A stretch of DNA of 64,000 nt from assembly GCF_030362855.1 (NCBI RefSeq), contig NZ_JAUCBP010000007.1, forward strand, positions 308,675-372,674. Direction: 5' to 3'. The position numbers and the translations under genes were made by a program. The notes under the pieces are model-generated. The model worked only from the letters and a program-made list of their open reading frames with translations. It had not been told where the DNA came from and did not search any database. This document shows positions 4,487 to 50,997 of this stretch, in pieces. Positions within the stretch are counted from its first letter, which is position 1. The number at the start of each line of letters is the position of its first letter. Source of the stretch: Alteromonas arenosi. GTDB taxonomy: Bacteria; Pseudomonadota; Gammaproteobacteria; Enterobacterales; Alteromonadaceae.

Positions 4487-5254
4487 TTACCAGGCTGACA
4501 CACCGCCATCAACGGCAATGGTTTGGCCGTTCATGTAGGTGTTGCCGGGTGATAGCATCATTAACATTACGTTGACCATTTCTTGTGGATCGCCCAAGCG
4601 TTTCATCGGGCTGCCCATTGCCATTCGCGCTCGGTCTTTTTCGGAGTTAAACCCATCAACATTAAGGATATTCGTTGGGCTAAAAAATGGACATATGGCG
4701 TTACAACGCACATTTAATCGACCATATTCAATTGCTGCGGTGCGTGTTAGGCCTGCAACTGCATGTTTAGCTGCTACGTAGGCACCGCCTTTGGGCGCAC
4801 CGCCAATACCCGCCATAGAACTTACATTGAGTATATGGCCTTTACCATTCGCCAGCATGGCTTGGATCTGATATTTCATACCATACATTACGCCTTTGAC
4901 ATTAATATCAATTTGACGATCCAGAATCGCTTCAGTGAGTTCATGTATGGCAGCCGGATCATGCGCCACACCGGCATTGTTAACGGCACTGTCTAATTTG
5001 CCAAAAGTGTCGACGGCCGTCTTAACCATGGTCGCGCACTCAGCTTCAGAAGACACGTCATTTTTCATAGATGTAACGCGCTGAGCGGGGACATTGAGTT
5101 GTTTAACCGTTTCAGCCAAGCCTGCCTCGTCAATATCGCCCAAGACTAAATTGGCGCCACGGCTGGCTAGTCCAATTGCAAGTAAACGACCGAAACCGCT
5201 CGCGGCGCCTGTGATTAACACGGTGTGATCAGTAAAATCGAGTAACGGATCCAT
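4487..5254 (-). CDS. Short-chain dehydrogenase/reductase (SDR) family oxidoreductase.
   Basis: 255 aa with TGAASGFGR (TGxxxGxG) and a YVAAKHAV (YxxxK) catalytic motif. Confidence 0.85.
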   Translation of the reverse strand: MDPLLDFTDHTVLITGAASGFGRLLAIGLASRGANLVLGDIDEAGLAETVKQLNVPAQRVTSMKNDVSSEAECATMVKTAVDTFGKLDSAVNNAGVAHDPAAIHELTEAILDRQIDINVKGVMYGMKYQIQAMLANGKGHILNVSSMAGIGGAPKGGAYVAAKHAVAGLTRTAAIEYGRLNVRCNAICPFFSPTNILNVDGFNSEKDRARMAMGSPMKRLGDPQEMVNVMLMMLSPGNTYMNGQTIAVDGGVSAW

Positions 5255-22832: not shown

Positions 22833-22909
<77 letters not shown>

Positions 22910-29172: not shown

Positions 29173-30777
29173 TCAGCTGTTTTTTATTTGCTTAAACGTT
29201 AGCCCAAATTTTTGTAAATACATCCGCAGACGGTGTGAATCATTCTGTGTTTGCTTGCGCAATCGACTCTTGTCAAACAAAGCGCGGCTCGCTTCGGCGG
29301 CAGTAGTATATTGTTTACACGCTTGAATGACGCTTTGCAGCTGCATTTGATCAAAGTAATCTAATTCTTCAATAACCTCTTTGTCTAACCACTCTGTAAG
29401 GTCTACCTGCTTGTTTTCGATTTGCTGCTGCCAGCGATTTTGTAAGCGCTGAATTTCACGCTCCACTGTATTGCGTTCGATGCGTCCTGATGGGCTGAGG
29501 GTCGCCATCCGTGTAACACTTGCATTTAGATCTCTAAAATTTGCAGCCCACGTTGCACTTGGACTTTTGGCGAAGCTCAAGTACTGCTCTTTGGCAGCCA
29601 TACTAAAGCGTATATGGCGGTCTAACAGTCGAGCGCTCTGGTGCAGCTCAAATTCGAGATTAACTTCAAAGTCGTCCATTCGTTGTTTCAAAGAGGGGAG
29701 TCGCCACGACCAAATATCAATTCGAGCCAACAAATCCTCGCGAAAGCGACCCTGTTTAACTTCTTCTTGCAGATCTTTGTTGGTGCCGGCGATTAGCTGA
29801 AAGTCACTGTAAACTAAACTGTCAGCGCCTACGGGGTAAAACTCTTTAGATTCAATTGCATGCAGCAGCATGGCTTGCTCATCAAGGCCCAGCTCACCAA
29901 TCTCATCTAAAAACAAAACCCCTTTATCGGCTTGTTTTAAGTAACCACTGCGCGGATTAATTGCGCCGGTAAATGCACCCTTAACATGCCCAAAGAGTGC
30001 AGACATAGCCCCTTCACCTACCAGTGTTGCACAGTTTACCGGTACAAAGCTGGCGGTAACTTCTTTGCGTGTGGCTTTTAACTCGTATATCCGCCGCGCT
30101 AATTGTGATTTTCCTGCACCAGTAGGCCCTTGCAGCAAAATTGTATCTCGTGAACTTATAGCGACCTGTTCAATTTCCTCTATCATTTGGTTAAAAGCTA
30201 TGTCGCGAGTCTGAATTCCCGCCTTTAGGAATTCCGTTCCCGCTTGCGCCTGTTGTTGGAAGCGTTGCGATAGGGCATCGTACTTGGATAAATCTAAGTC
30301 AATTACCCGCAATATGCCTTTGGATTTTTCTTCGGGCGGCGCATTAAAGTCAGGGGAAACCTGAACCAGTCGAGCAGGGAATAATTGTGCTTCGCTGAGC
30401 AAAAACATACAGATTTGATTCACATGAGTGCCCGTAGTGATATTCAAATAGTAGTTTTCATTGTCTGTATCAAAGTTGTAATGCTGGCTAAACTCCAGTA
30501 GCCATGAATACACATCGGCAAAATCCCACGGATCACTCCACGCAGTTTCAACCAATGCAACTTGCGTGTGCGGCGATACTTGCTGTACATCTTCCATCAC
30601 CCGCTTAGCTAGGCGCAAATAATCAGGCTCATAGAGCATTTCCATGCGATCGACAGGAAATTCCGGGTGAGATACTAAGCTAATTGTCGGACGCCACGCG
30701 TGCCAGCGCTTATGGCCACGACCTTTGGCATCTTTAATAACACCAAGAATATTTATGACCACATTTCTCTTTGTCAT
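29173..30777 (-). CDS. rtcR: Sigma54-dependent transcriptional activator RtcR (CARF-like sensor + AAA+ + HTH).
   Basis: 534 aa. The N-terminal RtcR/CARF-like region (VVINILGVIKDAKGRGHKRWHAWRPT…) aligns with E. coli RtcR. The AAA+ domain carries the GAFTGA motif, and there is a C-terminal HTH. It is divergent from an rtcB operon. Confidence 0.9.
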   Translation of the reverse strand: MTKRNVVINILGVIKDAKGRGHKRWHAWRPTISLVSHPEFPVDRMEMLYEPDYLRLAKRVMEDVQQVSPHTQVALVETAWSDPWDFADVYSWLLEFSQHYNFDTDNENYYLNITTGTHVNQICMFLLSEAQLFPARLVQVSPDFNAPPEEKSKGILRVIDLDLSKYDALSQRFQQQAQAGTEFLKAGIQTRDIAFNQMIEEIEQVAISSRDTILLQGPTGAGKSQLARRIYELKATRKEVTASFVPVNCATLVGEGAMSALFGHVKGAFTGAINPRSGYLKQADKGVLFLDEIGELGLDEQAMLLHAIESKEFYPVGADSLVYSDFQLIAGTNKDLQEEVKQGRFREDLLARIDIWSWRLPSLKQRMDDFEVNLEFELHQSARLLDRHIRFSMAAKEQYLSFAKSPSATWAANFRDLNASVTRMATLSPSGRIERNTVEREIQRLQNRWQQQIENKQVDLTEWLDKEVIEELDYFDQMQLQSVIQACKQYTTAAEASRALFDKSRLRKQTQNDSHRLRMYLQKFGLTFKQIKNS

Positions 30778-30937: not shown

Positions 30938-30953
30938 TTGGCACTGCGCTTGA
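30938..30953 (+). promoter_or_regulatory. Candidate sigma54 (-24/-12) promoter facing the rtcB operon.
   Basis: tTGGCACtgcgcTTGAa compared with the consensus TGGCAC-N5-TTGCW. The -24 element and the spacing are perfect, but the -12 GC is replaced by GA. It sits between rtcR and the rtcB operon, about 140 nt upstream of the tRNA-like element. Confidence 0.35.
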
Positions 30954-31078
30954 AAACGATGTCGGCGTTAGTCGCTATTGATGTGTATGTTCTGCACACA
31001 GGTGCGTTAGGTGTTACCAATCGTATACCGCGAACTAACACCGACAGTTGTTCTGTCACCAGCCTTTCACGCTGGACG

Positions 31079-31152
31079 CTGTATGTAGCTCAGAGGTAGA
31101 GCTCGAAATTATGGATTTCGTGGACGTGGGTTCAATTCCCATCATACAACCA
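31079..31152 (+). ncRNA. tRNA-like structured RNA in the leader of the rtcB operon (Y-RNA/YrlA-like tRNA mimic, or a degenerate tRNA).
   Basis: A cloverleaf-compatible sequence. The acceptor strand CTGTATG pairs with CATACAA. D-arm TA-GCTC-AGAGGTA-GAGC. Anticodon-like stem CGAAA/TTTCG with loop TTATGGA. T-arm GTGGG-TTCAATT-CCCAT. It ends in CCA. It is not a canonical tRNA (see findings). Confidence 0.45.
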
Positions 31153-31177
31153 ATGTAAAAACTGGATAAGACTTAGC

Positions 31178-31210
31178 TTAAGTCAACAGGTTCGAACCCT
31201 GTTATGAACA
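31178..31210 (+). ncRNA. Second tRNA-like module: an isolated T-arm-like hairpin with a GGTTCGAAC loop.
   Basis: ACAGG-TTCGAAC-CCTGT (31186–31202) matches the tRNA T-arm consensus (GG-TTCGAAT-CC). It is preceded by hairpin GACTTA-gct-TAAGTC. No acceptor pairing was found. Confidence 0.3.
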
Positions 31211-31412
31211 AACTGTAAATTTGTTTAAACCCGACTGAGGGCCGTACTAACCGCTGTTAGTTACTCGCCTAGTCAACATTGATACACATTGCCAGTTGCA
31301 AGGATGCAACGTTAAACAACCGGCGCCGTGTATTGACCTTGATTAGCGCCAGTAATTTTCAGGTTTGCTACCCCCGAAGTCACATAATGTAAGAGGAATA
31401 TAGGAGGCTACG

Positions 31413-32588
31413 ATGGCCCAAATCAAACAAGGATTAGTGTTCACCACAGTAGTTGTGACACAAAACGAATTAGCGCTGATGTTTCGCGATGAGCAATTTG
31501 AAGCGGTGTTAGCGCCAGGTAAACATCGCTTTGTAAACGCCAGTAAAGCACTTACTTGGCAAGTGTTTGATACTAAAGGCTTGTACTTCACAGATGCCAA
31601 CGCCCAACGCTTGGTGCGTGAAAACGCTGAACTGCAAGAGCACATTCAGTTTTGGCAGCTAGCTAGCAATGAAGCAGGTTTGCTTTATGTTGATGGCCAA
31701 ATGCGCGGGATTGTAGCCCCTGGGGATAAGTTGTTCTTGTGGAAAGCAGCTGGCGAGTTGCGCCTAGAGCGGATCAACTTAGACGAGCAGCTTAGTGTTA
31801 ATACTGGCGTATTAACGGATATTAAAAACCGGGGTTTAAATGCAGCGACTAACTTAATTGCCAGTGCAGCAGTGGTGCGCAGAGTGCCTGTACTAGAAGC
31901 GCGGGTAATGGCGAATCATGTAGGGCTGTTGATGGTTGATGGCGCGTTACAAGAAGTATTGCAGCCTGGTGTTTACGGTTTCTGGCAGCTTAGCCAGCAT
32001 GTGGAAGTGAAAGTCTTCGATTTGCGTAAGCAAACCCTAGAAGTCGCAGGGCAAGAGATTCTGACAAAAGATCGCGTATCAATCAGAATCAATTTGACAG
32101 CTACTATCAAGGTCGAAGACGCAGTATTGGCAGCAGAGCAAGTGGATGACATTAACGCGTTCATCTACAAAAGCGTGCAGTTAGCGCTACGGGAAGCTGT
32201 TGGTACCAAAACGTTGGATGATCTTCTTGCTGACAAGTTGTACGTCAATGAGACGGTAAGTGCATTAGTGAGTGATGAGTTACATCAAGTGGGTGTGCGG
32301 TTGTGCCGGGTGGGGGTAAAAGACATCATTTTACCTGGCGAGATCAAAACGATTTTGAACAAAGTGGTCGAAGCGCAAAAAAGTGCCGAAGCTAACGTGA
32401 TCAAAAGACGTGAAGAAACCGCTGCAACCAGAAGCTTGCACAACACCGCGAAAATGATGGAAGGCAACACCACGTTGTTGCGCTTAAAAGAGTTAGAGGC
32501 GCTCGAGAAAGTCTCAGAGCGAGTAGGCAGCTTAAATGTTTACGGCGGATTGGAGCAATTATTGACCCAGACCGTCAAATTGAGCTGA
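31413..32588 (+). CDS. SPFH/band-7 (stomatin/flotillin-like) domain protein with an N-terminal triple ~60-aa repeat.
   Basis: 391 aa with AGGAGG 5 nt upstream. Three N-terminal repeats (LALMFRDEQFEAVLAPGKHRF / GLLYVDGQMRGIVAPGDKLFLW / GLLMVDGALQEVLQPGVYGFWQ) are followed by an SPFH core (…ILTKDRVSIRINLTATIKV…VKDIILPGEIKTILNKVVEAQKSAEANVIKRRE…). Confidence 0.75.
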   Translation: MAQIKQGLVFTTVVVTQNELALMFRDEQFEAVLAPGKHRFVNASKALTWQVFDTKGLYFTDANAQRLVRENAELQEHIQFWQLASNEAGLLYVDGQMRGIVAPGDKLFLWKAAGELRLERINLDEQLSVNTGVLTDIKNRGLNAATNLIASAAVVRRVPVLEARVMANHVGLLMVDGALQEVLQPGVYGFWQLSQHVEVKVFDLRKQTLEVAGQEILTKDRVSIRINLTATIKVEDAVLAAEQVDDINAFIYKSVQLALREAVGTKTLDDLLADKLYVNETVSALVSDELHQVGVRLCRVGVKDIILPGEIKTILNKVVEAQKSAEANVIKRREETAATRSLHNTAKMMEGNTTLLRLKELEALEKVSERVGSLNVYGGLEQLLTQTVKLS

Positions 32589-32655
32589 GTTACTTTTGCT
32601 GCCAAGGATGGCGGCAGTTTTACATTCAGGGAACATTAATACAGGAGGGAGGACA

Positions 32656-33435
32656 ATGACTGATGCAGTTAAGGCACGCATTGATGCCGAACTCAGCGCA
32701 ATCGAAAGCAAGTACAAGGTTCGCGTTTTAATGGCGGTTGAATCGGGTAGTCGGGCTTGGGGCTTTGCCTCAAAAGACTCCGATTATGATGTACGGTTTT
32801 TGTATATGCGCGAGCCTGAGTGGTATTTGTCGCCTTTCGTTGAATCCAAGCGAGACGTGATTGAATTGCCCATTGAGGATGAGCTAGACATCAATGGTTG
32901 GGATTTGCGCAAAGCTGTTAAGTTGATGGCAAAGTCAAACCCAGCATTATTGGAATGGTTTAGTAGTGACATCGTGTATCGGGAAGAAGAGGGCTTTCGA
33001 GCCACGTTTGCGCCATTATTGGCTGCGTATTATTCGCCCCGAGCGGGATTTTATCACTACTTACATATGGCCAAAGGTAACTTTCGGGAGTATCTCAAAA
33101 GTGACTTGGTCAAGACTAAAAAATACTTTTACGTGTTGCGTCCCATACTGTGTATGCGCTGGATAGAGTCGCATAGCAGTATTCCACCGCTGTTTTTCGA
33201 AACACTGGTGGACAAAACGGTCGAAGACACCGAGTTAACAAACGCTATCGCCGAGTTGCTAGTGCGCAAAAAGGCGGGTTTTGAGACTGATTACGATCGA
33301 CCGATACCGGTCATCAGTGCTTTTCTTAAAGCCGAACTGGCAAGACTCAGTGATTGTGCTGCGGCTATAGCCGTGAATCGCAAGTCTACCGATGACTTAG
33401 CTCGGTCCTTTGTACGTTATGTGGGAAACGCATAG
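32656..33435 (+). CDS. Minimal nucleotidyltransferase of the pol-beta superfamily, of the type found linked to RtcB.
   Basis: 259 aa. It has the NTase signature VESGSRAWGFASKDSDYDVRFLY (GS-x10-DxD). AGGAGGGAGG precedes the ATG at 32656. It lies directly upstream of rtcB, separated by a 27 nt gap. Confidence 0.7.
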   Translation: MTDAVKARIDAELSAIESKYKVRVLMAVESGSRAWGFASKDSDYDVRFLYMREPEWYLSPFVESKRDVIELPIEDELDINGWDLRKAVKLMAKSNPALLEWFSSDIVYREEEGFRATFAPLLAAYYSPRAGFYHYLHMAKGNFREYLKSDLVKTKKYFYVLRPILCMRWIESHSSIPPLFFETLVDKTVEDTELTNAIAELLVRKKAGFETDYDRPIPVISAFLKAELARLSDCAAAIAVNRKSTDDLARSFVRYVGNA

Positions 33436-33462: not shown

Positions 33463-34656
33463 ATGCCTGTGGTAACGCTGTTGCAAGCGAAAGAGCAACA
33501 AAAGCCGGTCAAAATATGGACCGATGAAGTGGAGCATGAAGCATTGGCGCAAATGCGGCGAGTGGCAAGCTTGCCATTCATTTATAAGCACGTTGCGGGA
33601 ATGCCGGATATCCACTTAGGGAAAGGTGCAACCGTAGGTTCGGTTATTGCGACTACTGATGCTGTGATCCCAGCTGCGGTTGGAGTTGATATCGGCTGCG
33701 GTATGAACGCAGTGCGCTTGTCCCTAAAGGCGAGCGATTTGCCTGACAACTTGGCGCGAGTTCGCGCGGCGATCGAAGATGTGGTGCCCTTAGGTGCTGG
33801 CGGATTTCATCGCAAAGAACAAATCCGCGGTGGCGATGCAATCGCGCGGAGCCTTGATGTTATTTTGGAAAAACATCCGGACATCAACAAACACGGTAAT
33901 GCGCGCAAGTATGCGCATCAGATGGGGACTCTGGGTTCAGGGAATCATTTCATTGAACTGTGTTTGGATGAAAATGATGATGTCTGGGTGATGTTGCATT
34001 CGGGCAGCCGTGGGATCGGTAACATGATTGGTCAGTACTTTATTCGTTTGGCCAAGCAAGACATGCGCGTGCATCAATTGAATGTGCCAGACAAGGAATT
34101 GTCGTATTTACGCGAAGGAACAGAACACTTTGACGACTATGTCGAAGCGGTAGATTGGGCGCAAGCATATGCCATGTATAACCGTGAGCATATGATGAAT
34201 GCAGTGCTAAGAGTCTTGGCTGACCATTTGAAGCGCTTTACGGTGACGAAAGAGGCTATTAACTGTCATCACAATTTTGTTGATCGCGAATGGCACGACG
34301 GCAACCACGTATGGGTTACTCGTAAAGGGGCAATTCGTGCGCGTGCAGGCGAGCTAGGTATTATTCCAGGCTCGATGGGCGCAAAGTCGTACATTGTTCG
34401 CGGTAAAGGTAATGCCGAGTCATTTTGCAGCTGTGCCCACGGTGCAGGGCGCAAGATGTCGCGTACCGCAGCAAAAAATCGTTTCAGAGTCAGTGATTTG
34501 GAGCGTCAAACGCAGGGTATTGAATGTCGTAAAGACAAAGGCGTGTTGGATGAAATTCCAGCGGCGTATAAGTCCATCGACAAAGTCATGTCACTGCAAA
34601 CTGATTTGGTGGACGTTGTTCATCAATTAAGACAAATCGTAAATGTAAAGGGTTGA
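33463..34656 (+). CDS. rtcB: RNA-splicing ligase RtcB (3'-phosphate/2',3'-cyclic phosphate to 5'-OH RNA ligase).
   Basis: 397 aa and collinear with E. coli RtcB (KIWTDEVEHEA…FIYKHVAGMPDIHLGKGATVGSVI…AAVGVDIGCGM…GSGNHFIEL…HSGSRGIGN…NCHHNF…AHGAGR). The metal-binding and GMP-His ligands are present. Confidence 0.95.
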   Translation: MPVVTLLQAKEQQKPVKIWTDEVEHEALAQMRRVASLPFIYKHVAGMPDIHLGKGATVGSVIATTDAVIPAAVGVDIGCGMNAVRLSLKASDLPDNLARVRAAIEDVVPLGAGGFHRKEQIRGGDAIARSLDVILEKHPDINKHGNARKYAHQMGTLGSGNHFIELCLDENDDVWVMLHSGSRGIGNMIGQYFIRLAKQDMRVHQLNVPDKELSYLREGTEHFDDYVEAVDWAQAYAMYNREHMMNAVLRVLADHLKRFTVTKEAINCHHNFVDREWHDGNHVWVTRKGAIRARAGELGIIPGSMGAKSYIVRGKGNAESFCSCAHGAGRKMSRTAAKNRFRVSDLERQTQGIECRKDKGVLDEIPAAYKSIDKVMSLQTDLVDVVHQLRQIVNVKG

Positions 34657-34768
34657 TTAGATTGAATAATCATCAATTAAACAGGAGCGTTACGACACTC
34701 ATCTAACACCTTATCTGGCGTTAGTTGAGTGTCAATTAACGCCAATATTGAAGTATAGGGTGAATGTG

Positions 34769-35959
34769 ATGAAACATTCCGAACGAGTTCGGCTGCGAGA
34801 GCAAGCTGAACGCCTCGATTTTGAGCGCAAAACTTTGCGTATCAGTTCGCGTGTAGTGAGACAATGCCAGGAAGACGTGATTGCGCAGAACTTGGCGCGC
34901 AAGCCGAAAGTTTTTCGCCATTCGAATACCTTGGTTTGTAAAGTTGCCGATAAAGCGCCAAAACTGGTTAAGGACCAGCATAGCTTGAATGCGGTTGAAC
35001 ACATGGCGCGTATTGCAACCTATCGCGATGTTGACTCATGGCAGCCACAGGGCAAAGGCTACCGCACCTTGTTGGTGTCACTGGCTGAACACTTGTTTGC
35101 TGCTTATCCAATGCCAGAGTTTATCTGGAGCGTGTTTTGGGCAACGGCTGATCGGCAGATGATGAAGCAGGTAGCTCGTATTGCTTATGGCACCAGTGTT
35201 TTTGCTTTGTGTGAATCAGGTTCACTACCTGTGCCGCTAACGCGTCGACAGTGCCATGCACTTATGCAGTTACCAGCTTCATTGAATTTTATCGAAGCCA
35301 TTCGTTATGTTCAGGTAATGAGCTGCGGTGGAAGCTACGCCTTGTTTCAAGCATGGAGCAAGTTGCGTCCCATTATGGTCATTCAAGAGCCAGCGATGGA
35401 GCAATTTTGGCAGCAAGTTTTACTCTGGTGCTGCAAACAAACGGAATTATCTGTTCAGGTGTTGCCTCAGCTCGTTGAATACTTGCGCGTTCGCAAGGGC
35501 GCTGATCGTCAGTTTGTGCTGCATAAACAAAGCTATAAAAATGTGCTTTATGCGATGTACGAATGGCAGCGACATGAGGCTATGCGCAAGAAAGCGAGTG
35601 GACAGAATTTGCCTGAATCTGGTTGGCTACCACTAGATTGGAAAGAGTCTATGAGCACCAAGCGCGGTCGCATTGTCACTCAGCAATGGCAGGTTGATGA
35701 GATCCTTTCAATCGAGCGTTTGCTCGCGGAGGGAATTGCCATGAACCATTGTGTTTATGGCTACCGCAATGCGATTAAGCGCGGCAATTGCTCGATTTGG
35801 TCGTTACGACATAATCAGCAGCGAGTAATTACAATCGAAGTTAACAATGCCTCTAGGCGAGTAGTGCAAGTGAAAGGTAAATACAATCGCGAGCCAAGCA
35901 ATGCTGAACGACAAGCTGTTGTGCACTGGGCGGTGAGCAACAATTTGCGTCTGAATTAA
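34769..35959 (+). CDS. Hypothetical protein (396 aa); the last gene of the rtcB operon.
   Basis: Same strand, 110 nt after rtcB. No family was recognised with confidence. The C-terminal region is NHCVYGYRNAIKRGNCSIWSLRHNQQRVITIEV…VVQVKGKYNREP. The start is ATG 34769; the track uses TTG 34748. Confidence 0.5.
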   Translation: MKHSERVRLREQAERLDFERKTLRISSRVVRQCQEDVIAQNLARKPKVFRHSNTLVCKVADKAPKLVKDQHSLNAVEHMARIATYRDVDSWQPQGKGYRTLLVSLAEHLFAAYPMPEFIWSVFWATADRQMMKQVARIAYGTSVFALCESGSLPVPLTRRQCHALMQLPASLNFIEAIRYVQVMSCGGSYALFQAWSKLRPIMVIQEPAMEQFWQQVLLWCCKQTELSVQVLPQLVEYLRVRKGADRQFVLHKQSYKNVLYAMYEWQRHEAMRKKASGQNLPESGWLPLDWKESMSTKRGRIVTQQWQVDEILSIERLLAEGIAMNHCVYGYRNAIKRGNCSIWSLRHNQQRVITIEVNNASRRVVQVKGKYNREPSNAERQAVVHWAVSNNLRLN

Positions 35960-50608: not shown

Positions 50609-50730
50609 ATCGTTATTTACTACCAACTTTACTTGCGTTAAGCGGCGGCATCGCTATAATACGCGCTCTTTTGGAATGGGCTGAATTAGTGATTGGTCAT
50701 TCCGGTATTTAAACTCATTAGGAGAATCCT

Positions 50731-50997
50731 ATGCTCACTAAAGAACAAACAGCAGAAATCATTGCTGAATATGCAACTAAAGAAGGCGACACTGGTTCAC
50801 CTGAAGTACAGGTTGCATTGTTAACGCACAACATCAACAAGCTTCAAGGTCACTTTGCGAGCAACAAAAAAGACCACCACTCACGTCGTGGTTTGTTACG
50901 CATGGTAAGTCAGCGTCGTAAAATGCTTGACTACCTTAAAGGCAAAAACGCTGAGCGTTACACTAGCCTAATCAAGCGTCTTGGCCTACGTCGTTAA
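50731..50997 (+). CDS. rpsO: 30S ribosomal protein S15.
   Basis: 88 aa and about 70% identical to E. coli S15 (…[24 protein letters not shown]…RLGLRR). Confidence 0.95.

Follow-up and report, generated by a model that had tools for sequence, protein, structure and literature searches.

A tRNA-like element of the band 7-associated class in the leader of a slipin-rlaP-rtcB operon of Alteromonas arenosi

What does a tRNA-like sequence do in front of a set of RNA repair genes, and is it a transfer RNA (tRNA) in the decoding sense at all? This question is raised by a locus of the gammaproteobacterium Alteromonas arenosi, which we analyzed within a stretch of 64,000 nucleotides (hereafter the window; contig NZ_JAUCBP010000007.1, positions 308,675 to 372,674 of the forward strand, with all coordinates below counted from its first letter). 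Here, an element at 31,079-31,152 on the + strand folds into a cloverleaf in the leader of an operon for a Band-7/SPFH protein (slipin), the nucleotidyltransferase RlaP and the RNA ligase RtcB. We hold with high confidence that the element belongs to a class predicted under the name b7a-tRNA (short for ‘band 7-associated tRNA’) and that it is a non-decoding tRNA mimic. That its RNA serves as a cofactor of the slipin is a tentative proposal, to which we give clearly less than even odds. For the best overall explanation of the locus, our confidence of roughly 0.6 is a blend of these two judgements.

Direct reading of positions 31,079-31,151 yields every part of a tRNA in the places where an earlier note on this DNA, made from the letters alone, had drawn them. 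The acceptor strands CTGTATG and CATACAA enclose a D-arm (TA-GCTC-AGAGGTA-GAGC) followed by a single T, an anticodon arm (CGAAA-TTATGGA-TTTCG) with the ‘anticodon’ AUG, the segment TGGAC and a T-arm (GTGGG-TTCAATT-CCCAT), and the stretch closes with CC. The two irregularities pointed out in the same note are also there: the pair C1:A72 does not form, and the CCA (31,150-31,152) comes directly after the seven-base 3′ acceptor strand, one nucleotide early, starting at position 73. This early register is peculiar to the window, locus L001 and a few other loci of the comparison described below. ARAGORN reports the sequence as tRNA-His(atg). The Rfam covariance models for tRNA and for Y RNA, which the note had proposed to run, gave different answers: the tRNA model RF00005 scores 58.0 bits versus a gathering score of 29 (E = 6.5e-10 in the 64-kb window) and flags only the pair 1:72 (C/A) as non-standard, whereas no Y RNA or other non-tRNA family matched the leader at E ≤ 10. 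Ten related loci searched at the gathering threshold likewise returned tRNA alone, with no Y RNA, tmRNA, T-box or other family. The nucleotides that make tertiary interactions in tRNA are present in the window element as well (U8, A14, G18G19, T54-C56, A58 and the pair G53:C61). Altogether, the detector scores for this sequence are far above chance.

The comparison was built from the slipin protein, which was aligned with 19 homologues and used to retrieve 80 genomic loci (L001-L080) from Alteromonadales, Vibrionales, Oceanospirillales, Cellvibrionales and other lineages; the nearest comes from an Alteromonas metagenome-assembled genome (MAG) whose slipin is 93% identical. ARAGORN called one to three ‘tRNAs’ on the + strand, 140-520 nucleotides 5′ of the slipin gene, in 59/80 loci. 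Sixty distinct elements were aligned (alignment A2) and turned into a covariance model, R1, which finds at least one element just 5′ of the slipin gene in 76/80 loci. It gives 73.9 bits to the window element versus 33.9 bits to the genuine initiator tRNA-Met of the window. Four further loci of the window clade, obtained by exact-protein look-ups and lying outside the training set of R1, all carry the element (67-76 bits).

Within the alignment of 60 sequences, the cloverleaf is maintained by standard pairs in 92.8% of cells, compared with 71% in column shuffles and 35-45% when the partner strand is slid. The compensatory stem changes that the earlier note had suggested looking for in orthologues occur in 17/21 cloverleaf pairs, and the covariation score of 0.583 (0.187 in shuffles) was reached by 0/500 shuffles. 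No variation occurs at U8, C11, U12, G18 and C61, in the T-loop UUC.A or in the pair G53:C61, while 77-98% of the sequences retain A14, G19 and A21. Covariation is seen at the 15:48 Levitt pair (G:C in 30/60, A:U in 18/60 and U:A in 4/60). This conserved tRNA core together with the covarying Levitt pair points to a real L-shaped fold.

The anticodon behaves differently from this core. Among 80 ARAGORN calls there are 36 different ‘anticodons’; three calls read ‘stop’ (TTA) and one ‘SeC’, and the anticodon loop has 6 or 8 nucleotides in 14/80. Even the nine closest leaders read ATG, TTG, AGG, AAG, a 6-nucleotide loop, GAA, AGG, GTT and GTT, and a single base change turns ATG into TTG (‘His’ into ‘Gln’) in the relative with the 93% identical slipin. 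Over 17 close orthologous pairs, 16.8% of positions differ in the anticodon loop and 20% in the variable loop; for acceptor, D-stem, T-stem and T-loop the figure is about 2% (anticodon loop versus the rest, Fisher p = 2e-5). The anticodon loop does not outpace the variable and D loops (p = 0.29), so that drift suffices to account for its change. The acceptor also departs from that of ordinary tRNAs: its 5′ strand has a GC content of 31%, compared with 66% in ordinary tRNAs of the same loci, and the pair 1:72 is unpaired in 26/60 family members. The motif NCCA follows the acceptor strand in 31/138 T-arm contexts, with about 2 expected by chance on a rough estimate; the 3′ end therefore seems to matter.

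On these data we consider it very improbable that the element truly decodes, for instance as a spare tRNA-His induced by stress to replace damaged tRNAs, or as a tRNA-Met of this kind in the clade bearing the anticodon CAT. Such a function would agree with the score well above the Rfam tRNA threshold, with the presence of U33 and a purine at 37, and with G-1 and C73, which could pair as in tRNA-His; moreover, the loop CTCATAA is kept in 9/13 of the L066-L080 loci with a called element. Against it stand the single base change in the closest relative, the differing ‘anticodons’ and the 6-nucleotide loop among the nine closest loci, the A34 that is abnormal for a His anticodon, and an AT-rich acceptor type with C1:A72 unpaired and the CCA out of register. 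A 7-nucleotide loop with an anticodon kept among orthologues is not seen, and the window element has neither a paired 1:72, and with it a 7-bp acceptor, nor an N73-CCA in register. The unconstrained anticodon loop, the AT-rich acceptor and the frequent lack of a 1:72 pair argue for a tRNA-body mimic rather than a decoder, as the earlier note had already judged.

The distant clade L066-L080 (Cellvibrionaceae, Pseudomonadales) keeps its CTCATAA loop despite compensatory changes in the stems; the carriers listed are L066, L069, L070, L071, L075, L076, L078 and L079. This retention suggests descent from a gene of the elongator tRNA-Met/Ile type, and possibly reflects residual recognition by an enzyme that reads anticodons.

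Next, we asked which gene the RNA accompanies. In L001-L063, rtcR is followed by the element(s), slipin, RlaP in part of the loci, and RtcB. In L064-L080 the rtcB gene follows directly after rtcR, and the element nonetheless stands immediately 5′ of the slipin gene. Since the element stays with slipin when rtcB is elsewhere, the RNA tracks the slipin gene rather than rtcB. The earlier note had assigned the element to the leader of an rtcB operon; this is supported, with presumed control by RtcR and sigma54, and the defining Band-7/slipin neighbour had been missed. In the window, the element ends 262 nucleotides upstream of the slipin gene. A pattern scan of metagenomes for leaders of the window type (T-loop...CCGAY...GGC...TRACCNCT) gave 14 matches, all of them ordinary tRNAs or GC-rich coding DNA. 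Viral contigs contained one slipin relative, whose sequence ends 157 nucleotides 5′ of the gene and has no tRNA-like match there.

The number and surroundings of the elements vary across the loci. L010, L015, L016, L020, L023, L030, L032, L034 and L035 contain two or three complete tRNA-like modules, arranged head to tail, in which the 5′ acceptor strand overlaps the 3′ end of the preceding module by 2-4 nucleotides; with this overlap, not all modules of a tandem can be released intact. The Pseudoalteromonas luteoviolacea group (L050, L053-L063 and L072) combines a slipin of about 540 amino acids, with about 150 extra residues, with a single tRNA-like module that is missed by ARAGORN and found by the covariance model. 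In MAGs of Cellvibrionaceae and Spongiibacteraceae (L071, L073, L076, L078 and L079), the upstream 4.5 kb hold arrays of 6-19 ordinary-looking tRNA genes of many isotypes, just 5′ of the b7a element and the slipin gene, and the arrays of L078 and L079 each enclose an rtcB gene (68% identity). This arrangement suggests an island that combines a tRNA array with RNA repair.

A second tRNA-like part follows the full element in the window. The T-arm ACAGG-TTCGAAC-CCTGT at 31,186-31,202, described beforehand as lacking a matching acceptor, indeed matches R1 in its T-arm part alone when filters are switched off (10.3 bits, model positions 49-65); this search yielded no acceptor or D-arm partner for it, inspection by eye likewise yielded no acceptor, and R1 without filters gave no D-arm match 3′ of either T-arm. 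Whole-leader alignments, which were not selected for pairing, show the hairpin in 8/9 closest loci, with compensatory changes among the stems ACAGG/CCTGT, GTGGG/CCCAC, GCGGG/CCCGT, GCGGG/CCCGC and GTAGG/CCTAC. The only disrupted second T-arm among the nine closest leaders is that of L098, where an insertion of about 20 nucleotides (~2215-2260 of that locus) apparently falls inside the T-loop. On its 5′ side, the T-arm is preceded by (A/T)GG(A/T)AA and then by a small covarying hairpin, for which we saw the stems GACTTA/TAAGTC, AGAC/GTCT, GGCC/GGCC and GGC/GCC, and whose loop is of the GNRA type in 10/18 lineages. In the window these parts are TGGATAA at 31,162-31,169 and GACTTA-GCT-TAAGTC at 31,170-31,184, so that the whole module spans 31,162-31,202 (+ strand). 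The combination of GG, small hairpin and T-arm recurs in about 20 loci of distant lineages, before or after the full element. We infer that the second T-arm is part of a reduced tRNA ‘elbow’ module of the leader RNA. Elsewhere, the modules next to the element are complete cloverleaves standing head to tail.

Four Aliiglaciecola loci (L005, L006, L007 and L049, ~4680-4800) retain the module of GG, GNRA hairpin and T-arm and a conserved block downstream of it, at the same distance from the promoter motif.

A lone T-arm could also be taken as a sign of decay. If the locus were a degenerate tRNA gene or the remnant of an integration site with a duplicated tRNA 3′ part and no function, an isolated T-arm would be expected, as is often found at attachment-site remnants, and a PcfJ-like gene downstream hints at mobile DNA. 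However, several gammaproteobacterial orders retain both the place and the fold of the elements, with compensatory changes, the two T-arms do not repeat one another, and no integrase was found among the flanking open reading frames (ORFs) scanned between 26.7 and 39.4 kb. We regard this as the least probable of the explanations weighed here.

As a next step, we examined the genes and signals around the element. The gene order is rtcR (divergent), a sigma54-like motif, a leader of about 450-460 nucleotides, and then the genes for the Band_7/slipin protein, RlaP, RtcB and a PcfJ-like protein. The rtcR gene (29,173-30,777, - strand) encodes a sigma54-dependent activator with a CARF-type RtcR N-terminal domain (Pfam RtcR 4.3e-71, plus Sigma54_activat; NCBIfam RNA_repair_RtcR 744 bits versus a cut-off of 650). 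The downstream genes all lie on the + strand: slipin (31,413-32,588; 391 amino acids; Band_7, 1e-31), RlaP (32,596-33,435; PF10127, 9.6e-86), RtcB (33,463-34,656; RtcB, 4.5e-128) and the PcfJ-like gene (34,748-35,959; PcfJ, 4.4e-15). The latter is confined to the window and its closest relatives, being detected by tblastn in L001-L003 and called in L095, L096 and L098. Two ordinary RNA features of the window are unrelated to this locus: the initiator-type tRNA-Met at 22,833-22,909 (64 bits, with C1:A72 and the anticodon CAT) and, at 50,673-50,784, a leader of ribosomal protein S15 (51.9 bits).

The sigma54-like -24/-12 motif, read directly as TGGCAC-TGCGC-TTGA, lies at 30,939-30,953 (+ strand). 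Its -12 part is TTGA/TTGT, the consensus being TTGC. The pattern TGGCA-N6-YTG is found 5′ of the first T-arm in about 46 related loci and the window, usually 109-220 nucleotides away, and three more matches to the strict regular expression lie downstream of or distant from the first T-arm. We infer that the motif is the promoter and that the leader is presumably controlled by RtcR and sigma54. Scans of the leader revealed no terminator-like site and no sigma70-like site on the + strand, and no plausible ORF, which places the elements in the 5′ leader of the operon. Accordingly, two candidates were rejected: an independent gene, for which neither an own promoter nor a terminator is seen on the + strand of the leader, and a leader peptide, for which there is no plausible ORF. 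The single-stranded fold of the leader is more stable than 100/100 shuffles (z = -4.2).

The tRNA-like parts are embedded in further structure. A 5′ domain of four hairpins (30,969-31,075, + strand), predicted by RNAalifold from eight leaders, comprises H1 (30,969-31,009), H2 (31,010-31,029), H3 (31,042-31,058) and H4 (31,059-31,075). H1 and H2 are almost invariant (e.g. GCACACAGGTGCGTTAGGTNTTACCAATCGTATACCG) among genomes with slipins 71-78% identical and far more conserved than the region 5′ of the promoter; this constraint may act on the RNA, or on the DNA, for example on a regulator site. H3 and H4 keep their pairing via compensatory changes. Downstream of the elbow module, a tentative AU-rich hairpin (AACAAA-CTGTAAA-TTTGTT, 31,207-31,225, + strand) is kept in the window, L001, L095, L096 and L002, and L004 has GTTTAT/ATAAAC at its site. 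A long irregular hairpin of about 150 nucleotides, referred to here as the rod, extends from 31,233 to 31,381 (+ strand) and ends about 20 nucleotides 5′ of the Shine-Dalgarno sequence of slipin. RNAalifold predicts 58 pairs for it from six leaders, 27 of which show compensatory changes, with a covariation term of -9.98 kcal/mol, and the rod may serve in processing or as a platform for proteins.

At the matching place, about 40 other loci (of L010-L072) form a hairpin whose stem of about 7 bp covaries and whose loop, CAAGCNGGAYGCUCC, is conserved, about 80 nucleotides after the last T-arm and about 100 nucleotides 5′ of the slipin start (e.g. L031, L050 and L052). The 5′ domain, the rod and this hairpin have no Rfam match, either in the leader at E ≤ 10 or in the ten related loci at the gathering threshold. 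The sequence TGGCAAGCNGGATGCT, which is common in other leaders, was considered as a second sigma54 promoter, which this hairpin superficially resembles, and discarded: its ‘TGG’ is part of a covarying stem and reads CAG in L013.

After describing the RNA, we looked into its neighbouring protein. The slipin has no predicted membrane helix (hydropathy maximum 1.2). Its AlphaFold model (pLDDT, the predicted local distance difference test, 82) starts with three N-terminal beta repeats, which are followed by an SPFH domain and then a long helix; the repeats carry three times the motif (V/A)GLL..DG.....L.PG...FW and are copies of the first SPFH beta unit. Foldseek with this model retrieves stomatin, HflK/C, prohibitin and the major vault protein, and sequence profiles detect the SPFH part only. 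Regarding the other proteins of the locus, a 2025 preprint reports that RlaP extends the 3′ ends of damaged RNA by 1-2 nucleotides and that over-damaged tRNA cannot be restored without it, and in Salmonella RtcR responds to tRNA fragments that end in a cyclic phosphate, which switch it on (Hughes et al.).

The slipin-cofactor mechanism would proceed as follows. The element would be transcribed in the leader of about 450 nucleotides of the slipin-rlaP-rtcB operon; given the promoter motif and the neighbouring rtcR, it would be made only when RtcR senses RNA damage. Covariation and conservation show that the RNA folds into an L-shaped tRNA body with an acceptor/T helix, a D/T elbow and the Levitt pair, and with its freely drifting anticodon loop it does not decode. 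It would probably be excised from the leader by enzymes of tRNA processing such as RNase P and those of 3′ trimming or CCA repair, to which the encoded NCCA ends and the tRNA shape point. The strict adjacency to slipin suggests that the excised RNA is a partner of the adjacent soluble SPFH/slipin oligomer, where it could give the tRNA-recognising enzymes RtcB and RlaP a tRNA-shaped platform. This last step parallels the platform proposed for Ro60 and YrlA in rsr-type operons and corresponds to a hypothesis that is attributed to Burroughs and Aravind in a secondary account.

The earlier note had suggested that the mimic may be a nuclease decoy or sensor, a source of ligand for RtcR or a substrate of the adjacent nucleotidyltransferase, and none of these ideas is refuted by the present data. 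Two other functions of a non-decoding tRNA mimic have to be weighed against this mechanism. The first is a decoy or sensor for tRNA-targeting nucleases, which would compete for anticodon nucleases or tRNA-binding toxins, or be cleaved into fragments with 2′,3′-cyclic phosphates that keep RtcR active. The response of RtcR to cyclic-phosphate tRNA fragments would suit this role, and competitive inhibition was proposed by Hughes et al. for YrlA's tRNA-like domain; a fast-changing anticodon loop could reflect an arms race, and one to three modules per leader would raise the dose. However, since the variable and D loops change just as fast, drift explains the anticodon loop as well as selection does, and a real anticodon loop cannot be mimicked by the 14/80 loops of 6 or 8 nucleotides or by arms that are readable with loops down to 5 nucleotides. 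Furthermore, the elbow module of Aliiglaciecola lacks an anticodon arm, and a free decoy would not need the strict linkage to slipin, which renders this role unlikely. The second function is a purely cis-acting leader element without any trans product, such as an entry site for RNase P or another tRNA enzyme that processes or stabilises the slipin-rlaP-rtcB messenger RNA or controls its translation. The element always lies in the 5′ leader or directly 5′ of slipin with no terminator between, and it is embedded in a larger conserved structured leader from the 5′ domain to the rod just before the Shine-Dalgarno sequence, as such a role would predict. Conserved NCCA ends, a full elbow, Levitt covariation and the common tandem cloverleaves nevertheless exceed the needs of a processing site, and the same class reportedly swaps with the trans-acting YrlA/Ro pair, according to a secondary account (bioRxiv 10.1101/312249). 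A purely cis-acting role is, in our view, a shade more doubtful still than the decoy.

Several points weigh against our interpretation of the element as a b7a-tRNA that serves the slipin. The 80 loci were chosen by similarity to one slipin subfamily, and the sequences in the covariation test were preselected by ARAGORN, a detector that favours cloverleaves. The Aliiglaciecola loci are without the full cloverleaf and keep the reduced module alone, so at least one lineage can do without the full tRNA shape. Adjacency to slipin fits a cis-acting role for the slipin gene equally well. In the protein, the model, Foldseek and profiles reveal no recognisable RNA-binding domain, the N-terminus consisting of SPFH beta-unit repeats only. 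Finally, membership of the class is judged from a secondary description of 2018 rather than from the alignment published in 2016, and by that description b7a-tRNA was without experimental validation as of 2018 (bioRxiv 10.1101/312249).

A broader and more speculative version of the slipin-cofactor mechanism, which we regard as unlikely in this form, takes the whole leader of about 450 nucleotides as one modular non-coding RNA consisting of the ultra-conserved 5′ domain, the tRNA-body mimic, the elbow module and the 150-nucleotide rod. Its partner would be a soluble SPFH cage resembling the vault and built from the membrane-less slipin with its three beta repeats, and the two would form a damage-induced ribonucleoprotein compartment that holds broken tRNAs together with RtcB and RlaP. 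If true, the modular leader RNA and the slipin cage would form a bacterial counterpart of the vault and Ro ribonucleoproteins, with the tRNA-shaped parts as handles for tRNA enzymes.

RtcB/RtcR operons are widespread, and of their RNA components the Ro-YrlA system has been studied, while the Band-7/tRNA-like counterpart has only been predicted. The window offers a clean, typical example of the latter kind. Conservation of the tRNA body, i.e. of the acceptor/T helix and the elbow, indicates that function resides there rather than in the anticodon; within a larger conserved leader the RNA forms only one module, and it is genetically tied to slipin rather than to rtcB. Should the partnership of slipin and RNA be real, it would link SPFH cages to RNA repair and provide a bacterial handle on the recurrence of tRNA mimicry in Ro/Y RNA systems. 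For genome annotation, tRNA finders report these elements with odd or changing anticodons (His-ATG, ‘stop’, ‘SeC’), and such calls should not be counted as decoding tRNAs or suppressors. Most worth attention are the modular leader, with its elbow module, 5′ domain and 3′ rod, and the slipin, which is vault-like and has no membrane helix.

How does the element relate to known RNAs? The earlier note had labelled it a YrlA-like bacterial Y RNA, and here its reading has to be replaced. YrlA is a circularly permuted tRNA with the order T arm, closed acceptor-like hairpin and D arm (Chen et al. 2014; crystal structure 6CU1). It sits within a long 5′/3′ stem that carries the motif GNCGAAN0-1G near its 5′ end, the proposed Rsr-binding site, and has no free CCA; its genes lie within 4 kb of rsr (Ro60/Rsr, TROVE) on the same strand. 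The window element resembles YrlA in its RtcR-controlled rtcB operon, its D/T elbow, in which the tertiary nucleotides are conserved and the Levitt pair covaries, and the lack of a functional anticodon. A D/T core with a covarying Levitt pair is also present in real tRNAs and is therefore not discriminating, and the reduced module, with a T-arm followed by a closed hairpin, recalls the YrlA order loosely. In contrast to YrlA, the window element has its arms in the usual order of a tRNA, its acceptor is open and its CCA is encoded, and it adjoins slipin instead of rsr. The motif GNCGAAN0-1G is absent from the leader (30,955-31,412) by regular expression. No TROVE domain occurs in the ten ORFs scanned between 26.7 and 39.4 kb, which bears out, for this region, the absence of a Ro orthologue stated in the note. 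The alternative of a Y RNA of the YrlA type whose Ro60/Rsr partner is encoded at a distant site in the genome could draw on the shared operon type, the D/T core and the loosely similar order of the reduced module. With an unpermuted order, no downstream D-arm, no Rfam Y-RNA match and YrlA genes otherwise found close to rsr, this alternative is about as improbable as a decoding tRNA, and we rejected the identification as YrlA.

Two further systems offer partial parallels. Like mascRNA, which RNase P excises from MALAT1, the window element is a cloverleaf inside a longer transcript, is expected to be released by tRNA-processing enzymes and does not decode; however, mascRNA is eukaryotic and defines the 3′ end of an upstream long non-coding RNA, whereas the window element precedes protein-coding genes and its processing is putative. 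The vault, composed of the major vault protein, the TROVE protein TEP1 and vault RNA, similarly ties an SPFH-type assembly to a small structured RNA, and the slipin model with its beta repeats, SPFH domain, long helix and no membrane helix aligns to the major vault protein over about 460 columns. In this alignment the TM-scores are low (0.37) and the identity is 12-15%, profiles detect SPFH alone, and a slipin cage that binds RNA is hypothetical. Vault RNA is not known to be tRNA-shaped.

The closest match is the b7a-tRNA. According to the Discussion of Wang et al. 2018 (bioRxiv 10.1101/312249), this class was predicted by Burroughs and Aravind (Nucleic Acids Res 2016). In that account it is encoded beside a Band-7 domain protein and RtcB and was proposed to replace Ro/YrlA as the RNA cofactor of RNA repair; b7a-tRNA and YrlA are said there to swap partners occasionally, and tRNA-like molecules in general may contribute to RNA ligation. 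Our literature search found no work on b7a-tRNA later than 2018, and there is no Rfam family for it; on RtcB together with SPFH proteins there is one paper of 2026, which merely notes a slipin gene in a Pseudomonas rtc locus. The original description, which we cite through the secondary one, may or may not already include the drifting anticodon loop, the modules in tandem or reduced form, and the 5′ domain and 3′ rod of the leader. Judged by the secondary description, nothing found here contradicts membership, and the window element combines all three features of context, namely a tRNA cloverleaf, adjacency to a Band-7/SPFH gene and an RtcB repair neighbourhood. Consequently, and as far as this description goes, the element is an example of the class predicted in 2016 and not a new one.

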